DNA from: a virus
Reading direction: 5' to 3' (one strand)
IMG/VR virus record: IMGVR_UViG_3300028578_000001
DNA length: 51,059 bases
Shown here: piece by piece, positions 2,215-22,919 of the stretch
How the letters are laid out: each line of letters opens with the position of its first letter
How positions within the stretch are numbered: position 1 is the first letter of the stretch
Position numbers and translations under genes: made by a program
Notes under the pieces: generated by a model
Database searches by the model: none
Told to the model about the DNA's origin: nothing
Seen by the model: only the letters and a program-made list of their open reading frames with translations

Positions 2215-2633
2215 TTGCCCATGTCCTTGGGCGTCTCGGATGGCTGGGCGATAATGGTCAGCCCCGGGCAGCCATCCATGATCCATTGGCAGCCGGTGAA
2301 AGGAGCGTTGGTCCAGAACGGATGCTTGGCCGCATAAGAAATGGCGCGCATGTAGACGGATGCCGGGGACGCCAGAAAGTCGGCGCGTGTTGTTGCGGCA
2401 AGCTCGTGGATGCCAGCTTCAAATCGCTTCTTATCGGGAACAGCGATCGTGACGTCGAGCGGTAGCGAATAATCCCGACCGCAGCCGCGTTCGTCGATGC
2501 GCGCCGGAGCGTTGAGCATGGAAATAGCTGCGATCAGCGCCGTCTCCATGTCGCTCAGCGCGCCCGCGCCAGTCGATACCGACCCGTCAGGGCCAAGACC
2601 CGAAGGGGCTTGGTGCGGAGCATGATCAGCCAT
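2211..2633 (-). CDS. Hypothetical protein (140 aa)
   Basis: ORF 2211..2693 trimmed to ATG 2633, which overlaps the stop of the HNH gene. Confidence 0.55.
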   Translation of the reverse strand: MADHAPHQAPSGLGPDGSVSTGAGALSDMETALIAAISMLNAPARIDERGCGRDYSLPLDVTIAVPDKKRFEAGIHELAATTRADFLASPASVYMRAISYAAKHPFWTNAPFTGCQWIMDGCPGLTIIAQPSETPKDMGK

Positions 2634-3417
2634 TGTAGGTGTCCCCCCGAAGTAGCTGTTCAATTGCAGTCTCGGAAACGCCGACAAGTTCACCCAGCTC
2701 GCGGCGCTTCAAAGGTCGGCGAAACGCAGCCCGGACGATTTCCGCTTGTGCGTTGGTCAGCTTCGCGTGGTGCGACTTTTCGCCCGCTATCGCGGTGCCG
2801 TGCGCGATCTTCTGCGCCTCATTCTCTTGTTTCGTCACCCACGCCAGGTTGTCGGCACAATTGTTCTTCGCGTTACCGTCTAGGTGAGCACATTCCAGTC
2901 CGTCGGGGCGCGGCCCATGGAACGCTTCTGCGACCAAGAGATGGACTGAAGCGACCCGGCGGCGGCCGCCACCGTGTAAGGACACTTTGAGGTAGCCCTT
3001 GACCTCGTATGGCCGCAGGTAGGCATCGGAGTGCAGCGAGAAGACGCGGCCATCGCTATGTACCCAGTAATCGGGAAAGCCAGCGACAGAGCGCCATCCA
3101 GCATCGGCGGCGAGGCGCCCAATCTCACCCTGATCTTTGGGGGAGACAGACATGTCAGGCGGCCTCAGCGAAAGGGCGATGGGCGCGCGCCAAATCTGTT
3201 CAAGCTTGGCGAGTTCGGCTTCGGCGGCTTCCCGCGTCTCGAAGTCCCACAGGCCGCGGGTGGTTGTCCGACCCTCCATTCCTGACGAGTGGCGGAATTC
3301 AGTGAAACGCTTCGTGCGGCGGGTGACTTCCACCAGGCTGTAGCCGTCGATCGCATGTGTGCCGGGGACCAGCGCCCAAGGCCGCGTGATCGGTAAGTCG
3401 TGACGGCGGGGCCGCAT
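2626..3417 (-). CDS. HNH homing endonuclease (NUMOD4-like + HNH_3-like + C-terminal HTH)
   Basis: GFPDYWVHSDGRVFS and ECAHLDGNAKNNCADNLAWVTKQEN motifs. Confidence 0.8.
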   Translation of the reverse strand: MRPRRHDLPITRPWALVPGTHAIDGYSLVEVTRRTKRFTEFRHSSGMEGRTTTRGLWDFETREAAEAELAKLEQIWRAPIALSLRPPDMSVSPKDQGEIGRLAADAGWRSVAGFPDYWVHSDGRVFSLHSDAYLRPYEVKGYLKVSLHGGGRRRVASVHLLVAEAFHGPRPDGLECAHLDGNAKNNCADNLAWVTKQENEAQKIAHGTAIAGEKSHHAKLTNAQAEIVRAAFRRPLKRRELGELVGVSETAIEQLLRGDTYNG

Positions 3418-6435: not shown

Positions 6436-7227
6436 ATGAGCCGCGTCGAACAGATTGGCTCGGCAACGCTGTACCTCGGCGACTGCAGGGACATTCTCCC
6501 GTCCTTGGCACCAGTCGATGCCGCCTTCACTTCGCCCCCTTACAACCTCGGCGAGCGTCCTTGGCCCCACTTCGGCAACTGGAAACCCGGCCAGAAGTCG
6601 GGCGGACAAGGCAAGTGGAAAGGAGGCGCGGAGTCCGGCTTTGGAGCTTACTACGGCACTCACGCGGACGCAATGCCATGGCCTGAGTACGTCGCGTGGC
6701 AGCAAGCTATTCTCGCCGAGCTGTGGCGCCTGACCGCGCCCTCTGGTGTCATCTTCTACAACCACAAGCCGCGCGTGATCGGCCCGCGACTGTGGCAGCC
6801 TATCGAGCTCCTGCCGGCGGACGTGCTGCATCGACAAACCATCATCTGGGCGCGTCCGGGCGGACAGAACTTCAACCCCACAGCCTTCGTCCCGACGCAC
6901 GAATGGTTGATGATGCTCGCCCATCCCGACTTCCGCCTGAAGTCGCGCGGGGCATCCGGAGAGGGCGACGTCTGGCAGATAACGCCCGACGTCAATCCGC
7001 ACCCTGCGCCGTTTCCAGTCGAGCTTCCGCACCGCGCCCTGGCCGCCACTAACACGCAGACAGTCCTCGACCCGTTCATGGGCAGCGGAACAACCGGCGT
7101 GGCCTGCCATCTGCTCCGGCGCCGCTTCATCGGGATCGAGCTTGATGCCGCCCATTTCGACACGGCTTGCCGTCGGATCGAGGATGCTCAGCGCCAAGGC
7201 TCCCTGTTCGACGCGGAGGCGGCCTAG
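6436..7227 (+). CDS. DNA methyltransferase, beta-class, SPPY motif (possibly N4-C or N6-A)
   Basis: TSPPYNLG near N-terminus, DPFMGSGTTGVA..IGIELD near C-terminus. Confidence 0.85.
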   Translation: MSRVEQIGSATLYLGDCRDILPSLAPVDAAFTSPPYNLGERPWPHFGNWKPGQKSGGQGKWKGGAESGFGAYYGTHADAMPWPEYVAWQQAILAELWRLTAPSGVIFYNHKPRVIGPRLWQPIELLPADVLHRQTIIWARPGGQNFNPTAFVPTHEWLMMLAHPDFRLKSRGASGEGDVWQITPDVNPHPAPFPVELPHRALAATNTQTVLDPFMGSGTTGVACHLLRRRFIGIELDAAHFDTACRRIEDAQRQGSLFDAEAA

Positions 7228-8570: not shown

Positions 8571-9257
8571 ATGAGCCGCGTCGAGACGATAGGCGCCGCA
8601 ACGCTGTATCTCGGCGACTGCCGCGAGATTTTGCCGACGCTGGGCAAGGTCGATGCCGTCGTGACCGACCCGCCGTATGGGATCGCCAATACTGCTGGCG
8701 GCCCCGAGAGCAGGGCGCGCGAAAAGGGGGCTTACGGCGGTTCTTTTGATGACACGCAAGAATACGTGGCGACGGTCTGCAGGGATGTCATCGATAGATG
8801 CATCGACACAGTGGGCAGGGTCGCGCTTACGCCTGGTCGCACAAATATATGGCATTATCCGCCTGCCAATGACGTTGGTTGTTTCTACCAGCCCGCAGCA
8901 ACCGGCTGTTCTTTCTGGGGGCGTCCAACATGGCAGCCAATTTTGTTCTACGGGACAGCGCCGAACAATGGCGAGCAACTGCGGCCTCTCCACCATGTGC
9001 TGACGGAAGCAGCGGAGCCGAACGGGCATCCATGTCCCAAGCCGCTCAAGGCATGGAAGTGGCTGCTCAATAAGTCGTCGCGGGTAGGCGAAATCATTCT
9101 CGATCCCTTCATGGGCTCCGGCACCACCGGGGTCGCCGCTGTTCAGATGCAGCGAGACTTCATCGGGATTGAGTGTGAGCCTTCCTACTTCGACATCGCC
9201 TGCAAGCGCATTGAGGACGCTCAACGGCAAGGTTCCCTCTTCACGGAGGCCGCATGA
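8571..9257 (+). CDS. DNA methyltransferase, beta-class, DPPY motif (N6-adenine type)
   Basis: TDPPYGI and DPFMGSGTTGVA..IGIECE; both ends paralogous to 6436..7227. Confidence 0.85.
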   Translation: MSRVETIGAATLYLGDCREILPTLGKVDAVVTDPPYGIANTAGGPESRAREKGAYGGSFDDTQEYVATVCRDVIDRCIDTVGRVALTPGRTNIWHYPPANDVGCFYQPAATGCSFWGRPTWQPILFYGTAPNNGEQLRPLHHVLTEAAEPNGHPCPKPLKAWKWLLNKSSRVGEIILDPFMGSGTTGVAAVQMQRDFIGIECEPSYFDIACKRIEDAQRQGSLFTEAA

Positions 9258-12878: not shown

Positions 12879-13138
12879 GTGCTCCGGCCAGAATTGTACC
12901 GGCCTGTCCGCCCGAATTCGCGGAGGAATTCGTCAGTGGCGGTTGGCGCCGTGTCGAGCGCCTGTACAATTGTCGCACCGATCTCCTGCTCAAATGGATC
13001 GAGATGTGTGGAGGCCCGGAACTGGATCAGCGCCGCAAGGATCACATGAAGGAGAACGGCGTGCGCCCATTCGGACCACGGGGCGGTAATGGGAGAAAAC
13101 CGCGTGGAGTAGAGATTGTCGGATGGCTGGATCGTTAA
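12875..13138 (+). CDS. Hypothetical protein immediately upstream of terS
   Basis: GTG 12875 in GTGA overlap; ORF 12797..13138. Confidence 0.45.
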   Translation: MSAPARIVPACPPEFAEEFVSGGWRRVERLYNCRTDLLLKWIEMCGGPELDQRRKDHMKENGVRPFGPRGGNGRKPRGVEIVGWLDR

Positions 13139-13722
13139 CCCCCAAACAGCAGCGCTTCGTTGACGAATACCTCATCGACCTGAACGCAACGCAGGCCGCG
13201 ATCCGTGCCGGCTATAGCGTCGCTACGGCAGAACAGCAGGCATCGAGGCTGTTGAGAAATGTTAAGGTGGCGGCTCTCGTGGCTGAGCGCCAAGCATCTA
13301 TCGCACGGAAGCTGGAAATCACTCAAGAACTGGTGGCCCGAGAGCTTGCTTTGCTGGGCTTCGCTAACATGCTGGATTACGTCAGCATCGGGGCTGAGGG
13401 TGACGCCTTCGTCGACCTGTCCGGTTTAACACGAGAGCAGGCGGCGGCGATCACAGAAGTGGTAGTGGAAGATTTTAAGGATGGCCGCGGCGAGGATGCG
13501 AGAGATGTTCGGCGGGTGAAGTTCAAATTGGCCGACAAGCGGGCCGCTCTCGTGGATCTTGGACGCCACCTCGGAATGTTCAAGGATCGGGTGGAGCACA
13601 CCGGTAAGGACGGCGGCCCCATCCAGACGGAGGAAGTGAGTGCAAGGGACGTGCTCCTCAGCCGAATTGCTGGCCTCGCTGACCGTGGCGGAGCGACAAG
13701 CGGCGATCGCAAGCCTCACTGA
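13123..13722 (+). CDS. terS: Terminase small subunit (Terminase_2/P27 type)
   Basis: LTPKQQRFVDEYLIDLNATQAAIRAGYS. Confidence 0.85.
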   Translation: MAGSLTPKQQRFVDEYLIDLNATQAAIRAGYSVATAEQQASRLLRNVKVAALVAERQASIARKLEITQELVARELALLGFANMLDYVSIGAEGDAFVDLSGLTREQAAAITEVVVEDFKDGRGEDARDVRRVKFKLADKRAALVDLGRHLGMFKDRVEHTGKDGGPIQTEEVSARDVLLSRIAGLADRGGATSGDRKPH

Positions 13723-14971
13723 GAGCCAGGCCAATGAGCTCGTCTGGGACTGGAGGTTCTGGGCTCGGCCGAAGCAACTGGCTCCTGTTGGTGATTGGTC
13801 TCTGTGGATCATTCGCGCCGGTCGTGGCTTTGGCAAGACGCGCTCGGGAAGCGGGTGGGTCCATGAGCGGGCGATAGACTATCCTGGTCGATGGATTGCG
13901 CTAGTGGCCAGAACTCCGGCCGATGCTCGCGATTACATGATTGAGGGGCCCGGGGGCATTCTGAAGAACACGGCACCTTGGGAACGGCCACGCTGGGAGC
14001 CGTCGAAGCGGCGCTTGACATGGCCGAACGAATCATGGGCGACAATCTACTCGGATGACGAGCCGGACCAGCTCCGTGGCTTTAGTGGTGATACGGCATG
14101 GTTGGACGAATTTGCCAAGTTCAAGAACGCCCGTGAAGGCTGGGACAATCTGCAGTTCGGTATGCGGGAAGCGTCGACTGATCGCCCGCGCCGACTGATC
14201 ACCACCACCCCGCGCCCGATCCCGATCCTGAGAGAATTGGAAAAGAAGGGCACCACCCGGGTGGTCATCGGGACCAGCCATGAGAATCGGGCCAATCTAG
14301 ACCCCTCTTGGTATCAGGAGACGATCCTCGACTACGAAGGGACCAGGCTGGGGCGGCAGGAGGTCAATGCCGAAATCTTAGACGATGTCCCTGGCGCACT
14401 TTGGACGATGGACATTATCGATGGGCCGGCCGATGCGCCGCGACGGGTAAAGGAGGCGCCGCAGTTGCGTCGGATCGTGGTGGCGGTCGATCCATCCGGT
14501 ACGAAGGGAGACGGAGAGGGGGATGATATCGGCATCGTCATTGCCGGCCTTGGGATGGATGGTCGCGGCTACGTGCTTGGCGACTGGACCTGCCAACTAT
14601 CGCCGGAAGGGTGGGGACGGAGGGCTATAGAGGCGTACCACAACTTCAAAGCTGATCGCGTCGTTGGAGAGAAGAATTTCGGCGGTGACATGGTGCGGTT
14701 CGTCATAACAACCGCGGACAGAAAGGTGCCGTACAAGGACGTAAGCGCTTCCCGGGGCAAGGCCGTCCGAGCCGAGCCGATCAGCGCGCTATATGAGCAA
14801 GGCAAGGTCAGCCACGTCGGCTCCTTCCCCGAGCTCGAGGACCAGATGTGCGCGATGACGGCTAGCGGTTATGTGGGCGAGGGATCACCGGACCGTGCTG
14901 ACGCGCTGGTCTGGGCTCTAACCGAGTTGATGCTAGGCGGCTCAAGCTACAACATCAGATCCCTAGTCTGA
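13640..14971 (+). CDS. terL: Terminase large subunit
   Basis: WRFWARPKQL.. Walker A GRGFGKTRSG; GTG start with GGAGGA 5 nt upstream. Confidence 0.85.
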   Translation: MQGTCSSAELLASLTVAERQAAIASLTESQANELVWDWRFWARPKQLAPVGDWSLWIIRAGRGFGKTRSGSGWVHERAIDYPGRWIALVARTPADARDYMIEGPGGILKNTAPWERPRWEPSKRRLTWPNESWATIYSDDEPDQLRGFSGDTAWLDEFAKFKNAREGWDNLQFGMREASTDRPRRLITTTPRPIPILRELEKKGTTRVVIGTSHENRANLDPSWYQETILDYEGTRLGRQEVNAEILDDVPGALWTMDIIDGPADAPRRVKEAPQLRRIVVAVDPSGTKGDGEGDDIGIVIAGLGMDGRGYVLGDWTCQLSPEGWGRRAIEAYHNFKADRVVGEKNFGGDMVRFVITTADRKVPYKDVSASRGKAVRAEPISALYEQGKVSHVGSFPELEDQMCAMTASGYVGEGSPDRADALVWALTELMLGGSSYNIRSLV

Positions 14972-15012: not shown

Positions 15013-16947
15013 ATGGCCGAAATGCGCCTCCGCTCCGTCCGCGCCAAGGCCGGCTACACCCTGGACGGCCTCCGCAACGCGCTGACCGGGCTCGGCATGA
15101 CGGGCGATCCGACCTACGCCAATCGCTATGCCTTTTGCCCTTTAGGCCCGGAAGAGATCGAGGCGACCTACCGCGGCTCCGGCCTGATGCGAAAGGCGAT
15201 CAAGACTCGGGCCCTGGATACCATCCGAGCGGGACGGGACTGGCAGGCCGAGGCGGACCAGATCACGGCGATCGAGGCTGAGGAGCGTCGGCTGGGGCTC
15301 AAGGCCAAGTTGTACGAAGCCGAGCTGCTGAGGGCGCTCGGCGGAGGTGCGATGATCCTCGGCATTCCGGGGGAACCTTCCGCCCCGGCCCCTACCGTCG
15401 CCAAAAGTCGGCTCGGCTTCATTCAGGTCATGAATCGCTGGCAGCTTCAATCCCGCGACTGGATTTCCGACCCGACGAAGGAAGGTTATCCCGGCCCGGA
15501 AATGTGGCAAGTCCAGACCGTGCAGGGTGTGGTCGACGTCCACCCCAGCCGGGTCGTTTGTTTCCGCGGTCATCCGTTGCCGAACCTCATCGGCGCCGAT
15601 GAGGAGACTAGGTTCTGGGGCGAAAGCCGGATCGAGCAGATGCTCGGCGCGGTCCAGAACAGCGACACGGCGCAACAGGCATTCGCGGCCCTGATCTCAA
15701 AGGCCCGTTCCACGATTGTCGGTATTCCAGGCCTTACCGACCTCGTTTCGACACAGGATGGCGAGCGGACCGTGCGAGCCCGTATCGCGACCATGTTGCA
15801 GCTCGAAAGCATGTTCAACGCGATCATCCGGGATGCCGGCGACGGAACAGCGGGGGCCGGCGAGACGATCGAACATCGCCAAGTCAACTGGACCGGCATC
15901 CGCGACGTCATGTACGCCTTCGCCACTTTCGTCGCCGCGATGGCCGATATGCCGGTCACGCGGCTGCTTGGCTTGGCAGCTGAAGGCATGAACGCCAGTG
16001 GGGACAGCCAGCAAAAGGACTACCACAAGTCGATCGGCGCGGATCAGGATTTGTTTCTGTCGCCATGCCTCGATCAGATCGACGTGGCCCTTATCCCATC
16101 GGCGCTCGGCTCGCGACCGAAAGAGCTATGGTGGAAGCACGCGCCTCTCGACACCCCCAGCGAAGCGGAGGAGTCGACCAGGTTCAAGACCACCATGGAG
16201 GCTGTCGAGAAAGCGCAAACCACCGGTGCCATCCCGGATCGCGCGTTCGCCGAGGGCTTCCAGAATCTAGTCATCGAGAACGGGTGGTTGCCAGGCATCG
16301 AGGGCCCGCTGAACGACATGGGGGATGATGAACGCTACGGTCTCAATCCAGAGCCTGACCTAGCCGATCCTGCCAGGCTCGAGGCGGCGAACGAGAACGA
16401 GGCGGTCGAGGAATTAGAGCGGCGCGGCGCTATCAATGCCGACCAGGCGCGCGCCCTGCTCACCGATGCCCGTCCTCGGACCCTGTACGTCAGCCGCAAG
16501 CTGCTCAACGCCGATGAAGTGATCAGCTGGGCAAAGGGGCAGGGATTCACCACGACGCAGCCAGCCGAGGACATGCACGTCACGATCTGTTTCAGCCGCC
16601 AGCCTGTCGACTGGATGAAAGTCGGTGAGGCATGGAATGAGGACGAAAATGGCAGGATGACCGTCCATGCTGGCGGCCCTCGCGCCGTTGAGCCTTTGGG
16701 GGACAAGGGCGCTGTCGTGCTGCTGTTCGGCGCGTCCTCGCTTTCCTACCGCCATGAAGGGATCAAGCGCGAGACCGGGGCGAGTTTCGACTATAGCGAG
16801 TATCAACCGCACGTCACGATCACCTATGACGTCCCGCCGGATTTGGACCTCGAGAAGGTGAGGCCGTATCGCGGGAAGCTCGTCTTCGGACCGGAGATTT
16901 TCGAGGAGGTGAACGAGGATTGGGAGAAGGGGCTCGTCGAGGCATGA
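15013..16947 (+). CDS. Portal protein (DUF1073-like) with C-terminal 2H-phosphoesterase domain
   Basis: Position after terL and size; C-terminal ~155 aa carry two HxT motifs (HVT at 16576, HVT at 16810). Confidence 0.75.
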   Translation: MAEMRLRSVRAKAGYTLDGLRNALTGLGMTGDPTYANRYAFCPLGPEEIEATYRGSGLMRKAIKTRALDTIRAGRDWQAEADQITAIEAEERRLGLKAKLYEAELLRALGGGAMILGIPGEPSAPAPTVAKSRLGFIQVMNRWQLQSRDWISDPTKEGYPGPEMWQVQTVQGVVDVHPSRVVCFRGHPLPNLIGADEETRFWGESRIEQMLGAVQNSDTAQQAFAALISKARSTIVGIPGLTDLVSTQDGERTVRARIATMLQLESMFNAIIRDAGDGTAGAGETIEHRQVNWTGIRDVMYAFATFVAAMADMPVTRLLGLAAEGMNASGDSQQKDYHKSIGADQDLFLSPCLDQIDVALIPSALGSRPKELWWKHAPLDTPSEAEESTRFKTTMEAVEKAQTTGAIPDRAFAEGFQNLVIENGWLPGIEGPLNDMGDDERYGLNPEPDLADPARLEAANENEAVEELERRGAINADQARALLTDARPRTLYVSRKLLNADEVISWAKGQGFTTTQPAEDMHVTICFSRQPVDWMKVGEAWNEDENGRMTVHAGGPRAVEPLGDKGAVVLLFGASSLSYRHEGIKRETGASFDYSEYQPHVTITYDVPPDLDLEKVRPYRGKLVFGPEIFEEVNEDWEKGLVEA

Positions 16948-17360
16948 CCACCATCGCCACCGACGGCAAGACCATGGCCGGGGATGGACGCGAGGTTGAA
17001 CAAGGCACAATTATCGGCTCCTTTTGCCGCAAGGTTCAACGGCTTGCCGATGGTCGGCTTGTCGGGGTGGCGGGCGACAGCATCGATGAACAGATGTTCC
17101 GGCGTTGGTTGGAGGATGGTGCCGAGAGTAAGCCGCGTCTGAAAGAATTGGTTGCTTTGGTGCTTTATCCCAGCGGGCGGCTCGACTTCTATGATCACCG
17201 TCTTGTAGCTTCTCCCATCGAAGCGCCAGCTGCCATCGGAAGTGGCGCGGACCATGCCTTGACCGCGATGGATTGCGGAAAGTCGCCAGAGGAAGCTGTG
17301 GAATATGCGGCACGGCGTGATCCCAACACGGGCGGGAAGACCACCGTCCTCTCGCTGTGA
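16944..17360 (+). CDS. HslV/proteasome-beta-like Ntn peptidase (138 aa)
   Basis: MTTIATDGKTMAGDG..KVQRL..VGVAGD..AIGSGADHA aligns by eye with HslV TTIV..AGDGQ..KVRRL..AIGSGG; ATGA overlap with portal stop. Confidence 0.6.
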   Translation: MTTIATDGKTMAGDGREVEQGTIIGSFCRKVQRLADGRLVGVAGDSIDEQMFRRWLEDGAESKPRLKELVALVLYPSGRLDFYDHRLVASPIEAPAAIGSGADHALTAMDCGKSPEEAVEYAARRDPNTGGKTTVLSL

Positions 17361-18157
17361 AGTTCTCCCTAGCCGCTATGATCCGCCGTTTCCGCAACCC
17401 ACGGCGCCGGCAAATCCCGATCCGCGACATTCCCCCCCCAGCCGTCCTCGCTACCGACCTCTATCGGGCCTGCTACTTGCCAGTCATCCGGACATGGGAA
17501 TTAGGGGCGGGGCGGATCGTCGCCGAATACGAGCGCGCCTTGTCGGCGATGACGACCGACTCTCCCGCCGACGTTGAGCGTGAGCTCGGGGCGGTCGACG
17601 ACGCACTTCAGCGGCTGCTGATCGAGCTAACGCCCCGCCTTCGATCCTGGGCCCTGCGGATTGAGACATGGCATCGGGGCAAATGGCGTGGCGCTGTGCT
17701 ATCCGCTTCAGGCGTGGATCTTCAGACGCTGATCGGACCCGAGGACGTGGCCGATACCGTGGAAACCGTGATCGAGCGGAACGTCTCGTTAATCAAGGAC
17801 ATCTCCAGCCAAGCCAGAGGCAGGATCGGTGACAGCGTCTTTCGGGGGCTGACCGAACGGCGGGCGGCGCGCGACGTGGCGAGGGAGATCAGGGAAGCTG
17901 TCGAGATGGGGCGGGACCGGGCGCAGCGCATTGCGGCTGACCAATTGACTAAGATCACCTCAGCGCTCGACGGTGAGCGGATGCGACAGGCTGGGATCGA
18001 AAGATGGAAATGGGTCCACAGCGGCAAGCTTCATCCCCGACCCGAGCATGTTGCGCGTAACGGCAGGGAATATACTTTCGCCAACCCGCCGGCTGACATG
18101 CCGGGGCAACTGCCTTATTGCGGGTGCCGGAAGCTGGCGGTGGTGGAATTTGATTAG
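17357..18157 (+). CDS. Head morphogenesis protein (Mu F / SPP1 gp7 family)
   Basis: RNVSLIKDIS..RAQRIAADQLTK..KWVHSG..HPRPEHVARNGREY. Confidence 0.85.
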   Translation: MKFSLAAMIRRFRNPRRRQIPIRDIPPPAVLATDLYRACYLPVIRTWELGAGRIVAEYERALSAMTTDSPADVERELGAVDDALQRLLIELTPRLRSWALRIETWHRGKWRGAVLSASGVDLQTLIGPEDVADTVETVIERNVSLIKDISSQARGRIGDSVFRGLTERRAARDVAREIREAVEMGRDRAQRIAADQLTKITSALDGERMRQAGIERWKWVHSGKLHPRPEHVARNGREYTFANPPADMPGQLPYCGCRKLAVVEFD

Positions 18158-19040: not shown

Positions 19041-20183
19041 ATGCAGTTCATCGACCGCCTGACGATCGACCGCTCCCACCGGACGAAAGACGGCTATCTC
19101 CGCATTGTCGCCAAGGCTGCCCGTAGCGGAATCCAGCAATATCAAGGGTGCGAGGTCGATCCCGAGGGGAAGCACTTCGCCAAGGACCAAGCCGTCAACG
19201 TCTATCGGCCGCCCGAAGAGGTGTTCGACTCTCAGGCGGTAGCCAGCTTCGTTGGTCGCCCGATCACCGACGATCATCCAACCGTTGCCGTGAATGCCGG
19301 CAACTGGCGCGACTACAGCCGCGGCGTGGTCGGTGGGGCAGTCAAGGACGGGGAGTGGATTCGCTTCGACCTGGCGCTGATGGATGCCGAGCTCATCGGC
19401 AAGGTCGACGGCGGCAAGCGCGAGCTGTCGGCCGGCTACGGCTGCGAGCTGACGATCGAGGACGGCACGGCCCCTGACGGCACGGCATATCAGGCGGTAC
19501 AGCGCAGTATTCGGGGCAATCACGTCGCGGTTGTGGATAAGGCCCGCGCCGGCCCCGAGGCCAGCATTTCTGACGGCGGTAACAAGCTGTTCGAATGTTG
19601 CGATGCTGCGACTGTCATTCTGAACGCGGTCGACGCGGTTGAGGAGAAGCCCGTGACGAAGAAGATCATGATCGACGGCCTGCAGGTCGACCTGTCGGAC
19701 GCCAGTGCGGTCGAGACGGCGATCGGCAAGCTCCAAAGCCAGTTCGGCGATGCAACCAAGGCGAAGGAGACCGCCGAAACCCAGGTCGCCACCCTCACGA
19801 CAGACAAGGCGACACTGGAGGCCAAGGTCACCACGCTCGAAAAGCAGGTCGAGGACGCCAAGCTGACTCCGCAGGCGCTCCGTGACGCTGCCAAAGCCTA
19901 TCAGGCGGTGGTCGACAAGGCCAAGGCGCTGGGCGTCGAGATCACCGATGACATGGACGAGCCGGCCATCCAGAAGGCGGTGGTCGACAAACATGTCGGC
20001 GATGCGGCGAAGGACTGGACGCCGGAGCTGATTGCGGTGAGCTTCGCGACCATCGCCGTCGACACCAAGGACGGCAAGATCGTTCCGATCCACAGCCCCG
20101 CCAACGTCAATGATGCCGAGAAGGCCGTCGCCGACGCCTATGCCGAGATGGTTGCCGATCTGACCGGCACCAAGGCCGCCTGA
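19041..20183 (+). CDS. DUF2213 (XkdF-like) prohead protease/scaffold protein
   Basis: N-terminal globular domain followed by Ala/Lys/Glu-rich coiled-coil C-terminus; sits between portal block and capsid gene. Confidence 0.65.
   Translation: MQFIDRLTIDRSHRTKDGYLRIVAKAARSGIQQYQGCEVDPEGKHFAKDQAVNVYRPPEEVFDSQAVASFVGRPITDDHPTVAVNAGNWRDYSRGVVGGAVKDGEWIRFDLALMDAELIGKVDGGKRELSAGYGCELTIEDGTAPDGTAYQAVQRSIRGNHVAVVDKARAGPEASISDGGNKLFECCDAATVILNAVDAVEEKPVTKKIMIDGLQVDLSDASAVETAIGKLQSQFGDATKAKETAETQVATLTTDKATLEAKVTTLEKQVEDAKLTPQALRDAAKAYQAVVDKAKALGVEITDDMDEPAIQKAVVDKHVGDAAKDWTPELIAVSFATIAVDTKDGKIVPIHSPANVNDAEKAVADAYAEMVADLTGTKAA
19570..19607 (+). promoter_or_regulatory. CTGACGGCGGTAA motif copy 3 (inside the protease/scaffold gene)
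   Basis: Read in frame as S-D-G-G-N-K at the domain boundary; downstream GTA box not conserved. Confidence 0.4.
19653..20183 (+). CDS. Candidate nested in-frame scaffold ORF
   Basis: In-frame GTG 19653 with GAGGAG 6 nt upstream, 82 nt downstream of motif copy 3. Confidence 0.35.
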   Translation: MTKKIMIDGLQVDLSDASAVETAIGKLQSQFGDATKAKETAETQVATLTTDKATLEAKVTTLEKQVEDAKLTPQALRDAAKAYQAVVDKAKALGVEITDDMDEPAIQKAVVDKHVGDAAKDWTPELIAVSFATIAVDTKDGKIVPIHSPANVNDAEKAVADAYAEMVADLTGTKAA

Positions 20184-20196
20184 GGGAGAATTCGAA

Positions 20197-20673
20197 ATGG
20201 CAGTCGCACAGTCCAATTACGGCACCGCTCCCGCCATCGGCCTTCCCGGTCAGATCGCGAATGAGGAACTGGCCAATATCATCAGCCGCACGGTCGAGAC
20301 GTCCGGCGGCCTCAACTTCGGCCAGCCCGCCGCTCGCAGCGCGACCGCGGCGAGCGAGAACAGCTGCCGACTGATGGCGAGCGGCGCCGTCTTCCTCGGC
20401 ATCGCGGTCCTGAATCGCGCCGTCCTCGCCGACGCCGACGACCCCGACAACTACCCTCAGTACGGCCAGGCCGCGCTGATGACGCAGGGCACCATCATGG
20501 TCACCGCCGGCGCGGCCATCGTTCCGGGCGACGATGTCTATTGGGACAGCGCCACGGGCAAATACGGCACGTCCAGTGGCGGCACCAATGTCGCCATTCC
20601 GGAAGCTCGCTTCGAAACCAATGGGGGGGACGGCGATATCGTCACCGTGTCCCTCGGCCTTCGCCGCCTCTAG
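20197..20673 (+). CDS. Head decoration/cement-like protein
   Basis: 158-aa Gly/Ala-rich protein directly upstream of the capsid gene; GGGAG SD. Confidence 0.55.
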   Translation: MAVAQSNYGTAPAIGLPGQIANEELANIISRTVETSGGLNFGQPAARSATAASENSCRLMASGAVFLGIAVLNRAVLADADDPDNYPQYGQAALMTQGTIMVTAGAAIVPGDDVYWDSATGKYGTSSGGTNVAIPEARFETNGGDGDIVTVSLGLRRL

Positions 20674-20686
20674 GGAGACCCAGGCA

Positions 20687-21658
20687 ATGACGAAACTGTC
20701 CCCCATCATCAGCGACGAGCAGGCCGCGTTCGGTTTCGTCACCGCACAGGGGCGCAATATCGAGGCGCAGATCTACAAGCGCCGCTATCCGACGTTCAAC
20801 TATTCGGACCACGTTCCGGTCGTGACCGAAGGCGCCCCCTGGGCGATCGGCACGCAGTTCCGCGTTTCGGACACCACCGGCCGGGCTAGGATCATCAGCG
20901 GCAAGGCTCGCGACATCCCGTTCAGCAAGACGACCCGCTCGCAGCACAGCCACGACTTCGTCATGGTCGGCGCCGGCTGGGAATGGTCGCTCGAGGAAAC
21001 CGAACAGGGGATGCTCTACAACGTCAACGTCGTTAACGACGATGCGATGGGGGCGGGGGACAATGTCGAGCGGCTGCTCTACGATATCGCGATCACCGGC
21101 TCGGATGAGGTCAACTGGGACGGGCTGATCAACAGCTCGCTCGTTCCCTCGGCGAACGCTGGCGCGACGGGCTCCGGCTCGTCGCTGCTCTGGTCGGCAA
21201 AGACGGTGGACAACATTCTGGCCGACTTCAACACCGGCCTGGAGACGGTGCGGACTCAGTCCGGTGAGGTCGAATGGGCCGATACGGTCCGGCTTCCTCC
21301 GGAGGCGTTCCGCTTCATCGCGACCAAGCGGCTCGGCACCGACGGCTCGATGGGCACGCTGCTCGAATACGTCCAGAAGAACAACATCTACACCGCCGAG
21401 AACAAGCAGCCGCTCGACATTGCTCCCCTGCGCGACCTCTCCAGCGCGGCGGCCGGCGCGACTGGACGCGCGGTCTTTTACCGCAAAGACCCGCAGGTGC
21501 TGAAATTCCACCTGCCCATGCCGCGCAGGGTTCTGCCGGTCCATCGTGTCGGCTTGATGGCCTACGAGCAAGGCGTCATCGCCCGCACCGGCGGCACGGA
21601 AATCCGGTTGCCCAGCGCGATGTTCTATCTCGACGGAATCACTGCCGAGCCGAGCTGA
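20687..21658 (+). CDS. Major capsid protein (DUF2184-like)
   Basis: Position, size (323 aa), N-terminal ..FVTAQGRNIEAQIYKRRYP..; ATG 20687 in ORF 20534..21658. Confidence 0.75.
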   Translation: MTKLSPIISDEQAAFGFVTAQGRNIEAQIYKRRYPTFNYSDHVPVVTEGAPWAIGTQFRVSDTTGRARIISGKARDIPFSKTTRSQHSHDFVMVGAGWEWSLEETEQGMLYNVNVVNDDAMGAGDNVERLLYDIAITGSDEVNWDGLINSSLVPSANAGATGSGSSLLWSAKTVDNILADFNTGLETVRTQSGEVEWADTVRLPPEAFRFIATKRLGTDGSMGTLLEYVQKNNIYTAENKQPLDIAPLRDLSSAAAGATGRAVFYRKDPQVLKFHLPMPRRVLPVHRVGLMAYEQGVIARTGGTEIRLPSAMFYLDGITAEPS

Positions 21659-21929: not shown

Positions 21930-22243
21930 GGCGCGTCGAGACTGATCAGCAGTTCGACGAAACCGGAATCACCAATCTCGGGCCCGTTCCAAAGGGCATG
22001 TCGTTCCTGGAGGCCACCGTCGCAACCCGCGACCGACGCAAATATCAAGTCGACTATTACGTCAAGGGCACCCGCCTGACGATCTGCGACACGCTGCGCC
22101 ACATGCGCCGCATTGTCGACACGCTTCCGGATGGCGATGAGAAGGAAGCCTTGCGCGAATATATCGCCGCCTCCGTGGACTATGCAAAGCGGATGGACGC
22201 GCGGATGAAGGAGCTAAAGGGGCTGCTTCATGTCCAGCCCTGA
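21926..22243 (+). CDS. Hypothetical protein
   Basis: ORF track; 4-nt overlap with upstream gene. Confidence 0.5.
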   Translation: MRRVETDQQFDETGITNLGPVPKGMSFLEATVATRDRRKYQVDYYVKGTRLTICDTLRHMRRIVDTLPDGDEKEALREYIAASVDYAKRMDARMKELKGLLHVQP

Positions 22244-22919
22244 CTTCGCCGAGATCCGAAGCCGGTGCGACGGCATGATGAGGGCGGAGGTCTACGCGGC
22301 GATTTACGAAGCCGCCAAGGCTGCGCCCGGAGACATGTTCGCGGAGATCGGCACGGCGCACGGCGCCGCTACCGTCTGCCTGGCGCTCGCGGCTCGCGAA
22401 AGGGGCGGCGAGGTCTGGACGTTCGACACGTTCTCGTCTGGGGGCCGGAAGCAATATGCGGCCGACAATCTGGAGATAGCCTGCGCGAACATCGCTCATT
22501 ACGGGCTCTCAGACATGGTCCATATCCGCAAAGGTGACGCGGCAAGGACGGTCGCCGACCTTCCTGACCGCCTGATCGGGCTGCTCATGCTCGACGCGGA
22601 TGGGCGGATAGACCGGGACATGCGCCGGCTCTACGATCGCCTGGCTCCGGGGGCGACGATCATCATCGACGACTGCACCGACCGCGCCCGTGCCCGGGAA
22701 ATGGGCGATGGGGCGGTGCGCGTCGATCAGAAGCATCGCATAACCTGGCTGCTCACGAAAAGCCTGGAATCGGCCGGGCTCATCGTCCCGAAGCCCCCGG
22801 TCAACGAGACGTGGTTCGGGACGAAGGGGGAAGGCGCTATCTCGCACTGGACCAACAGCGCGGTCCTCGGGTGCTACAGGAAGCTCGTCTTCGCGACGGC
22901 TCACCTTCCGGAATGTTGA
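22230..22919 (+). CDS. Class I SAM-dependent methyltransferase-like protein
   Basis: MFAEIGTAHGAATVCLA (motif I-like) .. LLMLDADG. Confidence 0.55.
   Translation: MSSPDFAEIRSRCDGMMRAEVYAAIYEAAKAAPGDMFAEIGTAHGAATVCLALAARERGGEVWTFDTFSSGGRKQYAADNLEIACANIAHYGLSDMVHIRKGDAARTVADLPDRLIGLLMLDADGRIDRDMRRLYDRLAPGATIIIDDCTDRARAREMGDGAVRVDQKHRITWLLTKSLESAGLIVPKPPVNETWFGTKGEGAISHWTNSAVLGCYRKLVFATAHLPEC

Follow-up and report, generated by a model that had tools for sequence, protein, structure and literature searches.

A tailed-phage portal protein that probably carries a complete Acb1-family 2H phosphodiesterase at its C terminus

Why would a phage portal protein end in a domain with the motifs of a 2H phosphoesterase, and which enzyme family would such a domain belong to? 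This question is raised by a 51,059-nucleotide stretch of viral DNA (IMG/VR record IMGVR_UViG_3300028578_000001, referred to here as the window), in which a single open reading frame (ORF) encodes a protein of 644 amino acids (aa). A first-pass annotation, made from the sequence alone, had identified the ORF as a portal gene and its 3' end as encoding a 2H phosphoesterase domain of the LigT/Acb1 type. Our analyses indicate that the gene product is probably a PF06381-type portal protein with a complete Acb1-family 2H phosphodiesterase attached to its C terminus by a flexible linker. What we say below about the function of this portal-Acb1 protein rests on homology and predicted structure.

Profile and structure searches both placed residues 488 to 644 inside the 2H fold, with Acb1 as the first match. 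The Pfam Acb1 model (PF23474) aligned with residues 489 to 639 over model positions 1 to 143 of 144 (E = 6.7e-40; 136.6 bits, relative to a cutoff of 27), and the PHROGs family that includes T4 gene 57B, phrog_755, matched the C terminus with an E value of 1.6e-21; NCBIfam contained no Acb1 model that matched the domain. When the C-terminal 175 residues were compared with sequences in the PDB, they matched the Pam3 portal (8HDS, residues 460 to 616; E = 3e-36) and the Acb1 enzyme of phage FBB1 (7T26; E = 6e-9). An AlphaFold2 model of residues 470 to 644, computed from an 86-sequence alignment, was predicted with high confidence (predicted local distance difference test [pLDDT], 94.9; predicted template modeling score, 0.85), and a Foldseek search of the PDB with this model returned Acb1 (7t26/7t27) first (E = 2.8e-8; target template modeling [TM] score, 0.77 to 0.78; probability, 1.00). 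The subsequent matches were the phage BCSR5 phosphodiesterase (from a Burkholderia phage), E. coli LigT, a plant cyclic phosphodiesterase (CPDase), Usb1, and viral 2',5'-phosphodiesterases, and all 16 matches with E values of ≤1e-3 were 2H enzymes; no paper was found for the BCSR5 phosphodiesterase structures (9Q2Y/9Q2G). Searching a library of viral protein structures with the domain model likewise returned Acb1-annotated proteins. Judged from sequence and predicted structure, the domain has every hallmark of the Acb1 family except for a single stacking residue.

The features that had drawn attention to this domain all held up on inspection. The two HxT motifs, DMHVTICF (His codon at nucleotide [nt] 16576; aa 522 to 524) and QPHVTITY (nt 16810; aa 600 to 602), are separated by 78 residues exactly as claimed, and both fall within predicted β strands of the full-length model (residues 522 to 532 and 600 to 604). 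Since the 644-aa protein contains four H-x-[ST] matches in total, the motif pair alone is weak evidence, and its significance comes from the profile and fold matches. The linker described as rich in Glu and Ala indeed contains 10 Ala and 7 Glu among its 47 residues (aa 441 to 487). In the full-length model (pLDDT, 84), the portal body and the enzyme domain were predicted confidently, and the mean pLDDT of the linker was 49 to 64. Among the 62 full-length fused homologues that we compared (45 to 66% identical to the query), the linker ranged from 20 to 63 residues in length and was poorly conserved in sequence.

The assignment of the remainder of the protein to a portal was equally borne out. 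The body matched Pfam PF06381 with an E value of 6.8e-85 (aa 48 to 400), while the PHROGs portal family phrog_146 spanned the whole protein (E = 6.6e-95). The top PDB fold match of the full-length model was the Pam3 portal (8hds_A; E = 2e-25), followed by the portals of T1, E217, and Pa193. The score against TIGR01555 (HI1409 type) was 144 bits, which is under the equivalog cutoff of 196. The protein thus combines the profile match and fold of a PF06381 portal with a gene position directly after the large terminase in the head module. The third-position G+C content of the ORF (0.78) is typical for coding regions of the window, which has an overall G+C content of 63%.

Given that the fold matches pointed to Acb1, we compared the domain with T4 Acb1 residue by residue, based on a sequence alignment at 25 to 30% identity. 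Hobbs et al. (2022; PMC9117128) assigned roles in Acb1 to the stacking aromatic residues Y12, W74, F107, and W147 (which is in the lid) and to E141, which contacts adenine. The catalytic tetrad of the T4 enzyme (H44, T46, H113, and T115) corresponds to H522, T524, H600, and T602 of the portal-Acb1 protein, and Y12, F107, E141, and W147 correspond to Y492, Y594, E631, and W637, so that four of the five substrate-contacting residues appear to be kept by alignment. Across the 62 fused homologues, H522 and T524 were invariant, H600 was present in 61, and position 602 was Thr or Ser in all 62; toward the C terminus, E628 was found in 62/62, E631 in 42/62, and W637 in 55/62. These data show strong purifying selection on the tetrad and on most of the substrate-contacting residues, and the Acb1 domain appears to be catalytically competent as far as sequence and model can indicate.

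The enzyme domain was also better conserved than the portal body to which it is attached, with mean identities of 60% and 54%, respectively, across the 62 homologues. The difference was larger among 71 fused prophage loci, in which identity to the window protein was 49 to 70% for the domain versus 30 to 51% for the portal body; in one Brevundimonas locus (L037), the portal body was 32% identical and the domain 70% identical. At the sequence level, this excess of domain conservation marks a selected enzymatic function rather than a decaying appendage. The pairwise identities of body and domain were weakly correlated in the 62-homologue sample, which is star-like (Spearman coefficient, 0.04; Mantel r, 0.13, a value reached in 8 of 2,000 permutations), suggesting that either the enzyme is far more constrained or the domain has been exchanged among portals. 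An attempt to date the fusion by body-domain coevolution was dropped, as a star-like sample fits one old fusion followed by losses as well as repeated exchange. As a separate observation, three Brevundimonas and Phenylobacterium prophages (L037, L039, and L053) carry domains ~70% identical to that of the window on portal bodies that are 31 to 34% identical.

The fusion is widespread. PF06381 and PF23474 occurred together in ~110 of the top 120 homologues from a collection of 5.8 billion proteins, the nearest relative being 66% identical to the window protein, and among these top homologues, NCBI names some "anti-CBASS protein Acb1 family protein" and others "phage portal protein" (CBASS, an antiphage signaling system based on cyclic oligonucleotides). 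Scanning one genome per bacterial species yielded at least 399 related portals; among the best 80, which were analyzed further, 71 carried the Acb1 domain. The hosts of these fused prophages are Alpha- and Gammaproteobacteria (Sphingomonadales, Rhizobiales, Caulobacterales, Rhodobacterales, Stenotrophomonas, and Pseudomonas), with the closest prophages residing in Sphingomonadales. A related portal was encoded in 520 GenBank phage records, and in 32 of these it was fused to the domain; the cultured phages with the fusion include Synechococcus phages, the Rhizobium RHEph04-06 and RHph groups, Pseudomonas phiPSA1/MR15, Sinorhizobium HMSP1-Susan, Aminobacter Erebus, and Pseudanabaena Pam3. Portal-Acb1 proteins are known from phages and prophages whose hosts are Alpha- and Gammaproteobacteria or cyanobacteria. 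A HMMER search of 1.84 billion cluster representatives identified 2,001 clusters with E values of ≤1e-3 and 593 with E values of ≤1e-30; in 84 of the best 150 clusters, the domain begins between residues 420 and 530, as expected for a portal fusion.

The homologue search also returned free-looking proteins of 140 to 270 aa that were 55 to 73% identical to the domain. Two such stand-alone copies (P0123 and P0128) were considered as recent fission products and rejected, because they turned out to be pieces of portal genes broken by frameshifts in a single error-prone assembly. Apparent stand-alone Acb1 genes at two loci from JGI sample 3300072490 (L013 and L014; 59 to 70% identical) adjoin portal fragments of 110 to 139 aa and are best explained as frameshift-broken portal-Acb1 genes. 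Metagenome counts of "free" Acb1 may be inflated by such fragments. Copies in Ensifer and Sinorhizobium (P0162 and P0147) are candidate stand-alone versions.

Several observations weigh against the reading of this protein as a portal with an active Acb1 enzyme. The first-pass annotation had suggested looking for homologous portals without the domain, and some indeed exist. In one of these (P0065, at locus L001), a portal body 64% identical to that of the window ends after the linker, and no Acb1 sequence was present in the 13 kb of the contig that was examined; the domain was also missing from three viral contigs (L005, L007, and L008) and from seven prophage loci. Since such close relatives manage without it, the Acb1 domain must be accessory and its benefit conditional, and the portal-Acb1 fusion is wide but optional in its distribution. 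Within the domain, the position of W74 in the T4 and FBB1 enzymes is occupied by E560, which is Glu in 61 of the 62 homologues, and the nearest hydrophobic residue is L562, although this correspondence comes from the alignment alone, at 25 to 30% identity. At the position equivalent to E141, 15 of the 62 homologues have Ala, although the window protein has Glu. Given the W74-to-Glu change and the variable E141 equivalent, the substrate range may differ from that of T4 Acb1, and, as far as the alignment goes, base preference may vary within the portal-Acb1 clade. Finally, no enzyme assay of any portal-fused Acb1 was found in the searchable literature.

Other fusions of the same Acb1 clade bear on what the attachment is for. 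The clade was found on a Mu-type portal (PF06074; P0257) and at the N terminus of a DUF2213 protease/scaffold (P0367), each in a single cluster representative. Other cluster representatives extend the portal-Acb1 protein at its C-terminal end by an ADP-ribosyltransferase (P0319, P0329, and P0306), a zeta-toxin kinase (P0260 and P0317), or a PBECR3 nuclease (P0094). Because these appear to be independent fusions to several head-internal anchors, we would argue that targeting to the capsid is a selected feature. Fusions of 2H domains to portal or MuF domains had been described computationally by Iyer et al. (2017, J Bacteriol, PMC5512222; their Fig. 5B), who predicted that the virion packages and injects such polyvalent proteins and that their 2H domain may break down host-defense nucleotides. 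The window protein, which joins a portal and an Acb1/2H domain in one polypeptide encoded in the head module, is a polyvalent protein in this sense. We found no study of a portal-Acb1 fusion in the literature after 2017, and portals are not mentioned in the supplements of Hobbs et al.

The Pam3 virion structure offers a view of where the domain would lie. The C-terminal "barrel" of the Pam3 portal is described as its innermost part (PMC9942802), and since the Acb1 domain follows the barrel, the domain would sit inside the capsid by analogy with Pam3. Only 442 of the 621 residues of the Pam3 portal chain (8hds_A) are modeled, and our isolated domain model gave no Foldseek match to 8HDS despite 41% sequence identity to the Pam3 domain. 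Based on this modeled chain length and the missing fold match, the Acb1 domain is invisible in the Pam3 structure and is either flexibly tethered or removed. The Pam3 papers mention no enzyme domain and no peptide coverage.

Acb1 enzymes cleave the cyclic-nucleotide signals of CBASS by metal-independent acid-base catalysis, and CBASS effectors are thereby switched off. If the portal-fused domain is active, it would degrade these alarm signals, and type III CRISPR (clustered regularly interspaced short palindromic repeat) effectors that respond to cyclic triadenylate (cA3) might be affected too. As part of a late structural protein, the enzyme would be made along with the head proteins, and twelve copies would be carried into each procapsid. 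Since the substrates are small, unassembled portal subunits could degrade them, and copies tethered in the procapsid could act likewise, assuming that the portal channel is still open; in effect, the producing cell would contain a sink for the signal. Many CBASS systems are activated at the stage of virion assembly, and late assembly has been identified as critical for the activation of type I CBASS (10.1101/2023.05.21.541620). With CBASS seemingly triggered during assembly, an enzyme that is expressed alongside the head proteins and taken up into the head would be a plausible solution to the problem of timing. We favor this action in the producing cell as the minimum to be expected of an active enzyme, and it is compatible with injection. 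Delivery or immediate action from the virion, as put forward in the first-pass annotation, may also occur, but since the portal stays with the capsid, the domain could be injected only if it were cut off.

That possibility, in which the domain is cut off within the head (perhaps by the DUF2213 protease) and ~12 free copies, stored in the mature capsid, leave with the DNA through the portal channel to clear CBASS signals from the next host before any phage gene is expressed, is one of the two readings of Iyer et al. (PMC5512222), and we regard it as rather unlikely here. It would account for the presence of the Acb1 clade on several head-internal anchors (PF06381 portal, Mu-type portal, DUF2213, and, per PMC5512222, MuF) and for the relatives in which ADP-ribosyltransferase, zeta-toxin, or PBECR domains follow Acb1, which are of the kind that T4 Alt injects (PMC5512222). 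The absence of the domain from the Pam3 virion model fits cleavage as well as flexibility, the long, variable, and predicted disordered linker would be accessible to a protease, and the free acb1 gene of T4 adjoins a gene for an internal head protein. However, no conserved cleavage motif was apparent in the linker when homologues were aligned, and no proteomic or biochemical report of processing was found in the literature. Twelve enzyme molecules would also be a small dose. CBASS signaling appears to begin late, during assembly (10.1101/2023.05.21.541620), when newly made enzyme would far outnumber the injected copies, and passage through the channel would require unfolding of the 17-kDa domain. 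The specific version in which the twelve domains are cut during head maturation by the DUF2213 protein or the HslV-like peptidase encoded next to the portal, stored, and injected with the DNA seems unlikely to us; the DUF2213 protein is a candidate protease should the portal linker be processed, whereas a link between the HslV-like peptidase and such processing would be speculation. If cutting and injection did occur, this would be the first demonstrated virion-delivered anti-CBASS enzyme that degrades the signal, and it would lend experimental support to the packaging logic proposed for polyvalent proteins.

Two further explanations dispense with signal degradation altogether. The domain could act on RNA, either as a LigT-like 2',3'-cyclic phosphodiesterase that repairs the RNA termini left by host anticodon or toxin nucleases or as a Usb1-like RNase, the latter being the first alternative of Iyer et al. 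(PMC5512222). The fold matches to LigT, plant CPDase, and Usb1 are weaker but significant (E = 3e-5 to 1e-2; TM score, ~0.5), there are weak Pfam matches to LigT_PEase and 2_5_RNA_ligase2, and the family still goes by "RNA ligase" in PHROGs and in many phage records. We nevertheless consider an RNA-directed role very improbable, as the LigT_PEase model (PF02834) scores 13.7 to 17.9 bits, under its cutoff of 23.3, compared with 137 to 141 bits for Acb1, the best structural and sequence matches are to Acb1, and the Acb1-specific lid Trp and adenine-contacting Glu are present by alignment. Moreover, 2H versions of this type were never seen with RNA ligases (PMC5512222), and a nonexhaustive scan of the ORFs of the window revealed no RNA ligase. 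It is hardly to be expected, in turn, that the domain has lost its enzymatic role and serves as a structural appendage, such as an internal plug, a DNA-packaging sensor, or a docking site for the scaffold or MuF protein. In other portals, this location is taken by C-terminal barrels in contact with the packaged DNA, and the Pam3 barrel is described as innermost, but near-invariance of the tetrad and the substrate-stacking residues over 62 diverged homologues would be unexpected for a purely structural element. Head assembly does not require the domain, given that close relatives build their portals without it, and an acidic linker of variable length speaks against a fixed position. Signal degradation in the producing cell by an Acb1 enzyme remains the reading that we prefer.

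The window itself looks like the nearly complete genome of a tailed phage (~51 kb), in which the portal-Acb1 gene is embedded in a head module with the order small terminase, large terminase, portal, HslV-like gene, MuF, DUF2213 scaffold, cement protein, and major capsid protein (Table 1); the tape measure protein and tail genes lie farther downstream.

Table 1. Features of the portal-Acb1 ORF and of the surrounding head module (positions in the window)
Feature	Position	Strand	Remarks
Small terminase	13123-13722
Large terminase	13640..14971	+	Directly upstream of portal; Pfam Terminase_6N + Terminase_6C
Portal-Acb1 fusion ORF	15013..16947	+	Stop codon included; 644 aa, single ORF; homologues have the same two domains
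Portal body	15154..16212	+	aa 48-400; PF06381 Phage_portal_3 / TIGR01555 family
Ala/Glu-rich linker	16333..16473	+	aa 441-487; between portal C-terminal helices and enzyme domain
Acb1-family 2H phosphoesterase domain	16474..16944	+	aa 488-644
First catalytic motif, H522-V-T524	16576..16584	+	T4 Acb1 H44/T46, by alignment with T4 Acb1
Second catalytic motif, H600-V-T602	16810..16818	+	T4 Acb1 H113/T115, by alignment with T4 Acb1
C-terminal segment with E628, E631, W637	16894..16944	+	T4 Acb1 E138, E141, W147, by alignment
HslV-family Ntn peptidase	16944..17360	+	phrog_1040, E = 3.4e-34; ATG overlaps portal stop (ATGA)
MuF/SPP1 gp7-like head morphogenesis protein	17357..18157	+	Pfam Phage_Mu_F, E = 6.6e-11; phrog_324, E = 6.9e-45
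DUF2213 head maturation protease/scaffold	19041..20183	+	PF09979, E = 2.4e-54; phrog_530 "head maturation protease," E = 2.8e-84
Cement protein	20197-20673
Major capsid protein	Ends at 21658

The gene that separates the portal from MuF encodes an HslV/proteasome-beta-like Ntn peptidase of 138 aa that starts with MTTIATDG; it scored 20 bits against the Pfam Proteasome model, just under the cutoff, and matched HslV (1m4y) with an E value of 0.008. Homologues of this protein occur in 213 phage records, and none was found downstream of the portal in the 80 prophage loci, Pam3, RHEph06, phiPSA1, or the nearest relative. On these grounds, the peptidase was rejected as a conserved partner that processes the fusion, and the gene is a lineage-specific insertion. 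In the nearest relative (locus L015, 6862-8859), a HicA/HicB toxin-antitoxin pair and a T5orf172/MUG113 gene lie on the opposite strand between MuF and DUF2213, and at locus L001 an unrelated reverse-strand gene follows the portal. The insertion of accessory genes appears to have a hot spot between the portal and scaffold genes.

Elsewhere in the window, with their listed starts, the large terminase gene (GTG 13640) and the major capsid ORF (ATG 20534) share 83 and 140 nt, respectively, with the genes before them, and the capsid Pfam match starts at residue 116 of the latter ORF; the true starts of both genes probably lie farther downstream. A Methyltransf_24/TylF-like methyltransferase gene is located within the head-neck module (22230-22919, + strand), and the left arm encodes two N6/N4 DNA methylases and an HNH/NUMOD4 endonuclease (6436-7227, + strand; 8571-9257, + strand; 2626-3417, - strand). 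These genes may provide further anti-restriction functions to the same phage.

Among known systems, cellular 2H enzymes such as E. coli LigT (5LDI, 1JH6, and 4H7W) have the 2H fold and paired HxT/S motifs of the window domain, but they are only distantly similar to it (TM score, ~0.5; 11 to 14% identity), act on RNA ends or 2',3'-cyclic nucleotides, and do not have the Acb1 lid. The Acb1 enzymes themselves (T4 gp57B and Erwinia phage FBB1 7T26/7T27; PF23474) belong to the same family, with the same fold, HxT/HxT tetrad, and, by alignment, equivalents of Y12, F107, E141, and lid residue W147, and are of similar size (152 residues for T4 Acb1, ~150 for the window domain). In contrast to these characterized enzymes, to which it is 25 to 30% identical, the window domain has a conserved Glu in place of W74 and is covalently attached to the portal rather than free, so that it is predicted to be expressed with the head genes and taken into the head. 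In concept, an anti-defense activity on a structural or head-internal protein is shared with T4 Alt, IPI, and ICP3 Gp15, although these proteins and their mechanisms are unrelated, and delivery has been established for Alt and IPI. ICP3 Gp15, a protein of the ejectosome, acts on the CBASS effector CapV as a stoichiometric inhibitor and does not degrade the signal (bioRxiv 10.1101/2025.07.23.666291).

The closest structurally characterized counterpart is Pam3 portal gp3 (8HDS; PMC9942802), a homologous fusion of 621 aa whose body and C-terminal region both match the window protein. The order of large terminase, portal, MuF-like minor capsid protein, scaffold, cement, and major capsid protein is also shared. 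The two portals nonetheless are ~34% identical overall, the second motif is H-I-S in Pam3 and H-V-T in the window protein, and Pam3 has no HslV-like gene after its portal. With regard to the polyvalent proteins (PMC5512222), the window protein has exactly their portal-2H architecture; its relatives add ADP-ribosyltransferase, zeta-toxin, or PBECR3 domains after Acb1, whereas the window protein is the minimal two-domain form. Portal-Acb1 proteins are thus an architecture known since 2017, and the enzyme family was characterized in 2022 and has been built into Pfam and NCBI names; the window protein is one more example of this known design. The 2017 study predates the discovery of Acb1 and proposed both RNase and nucleotide-degrading roles, and the Acb1-specific residues of the window protein favor the nucleotide-degrading role over the RNase role.

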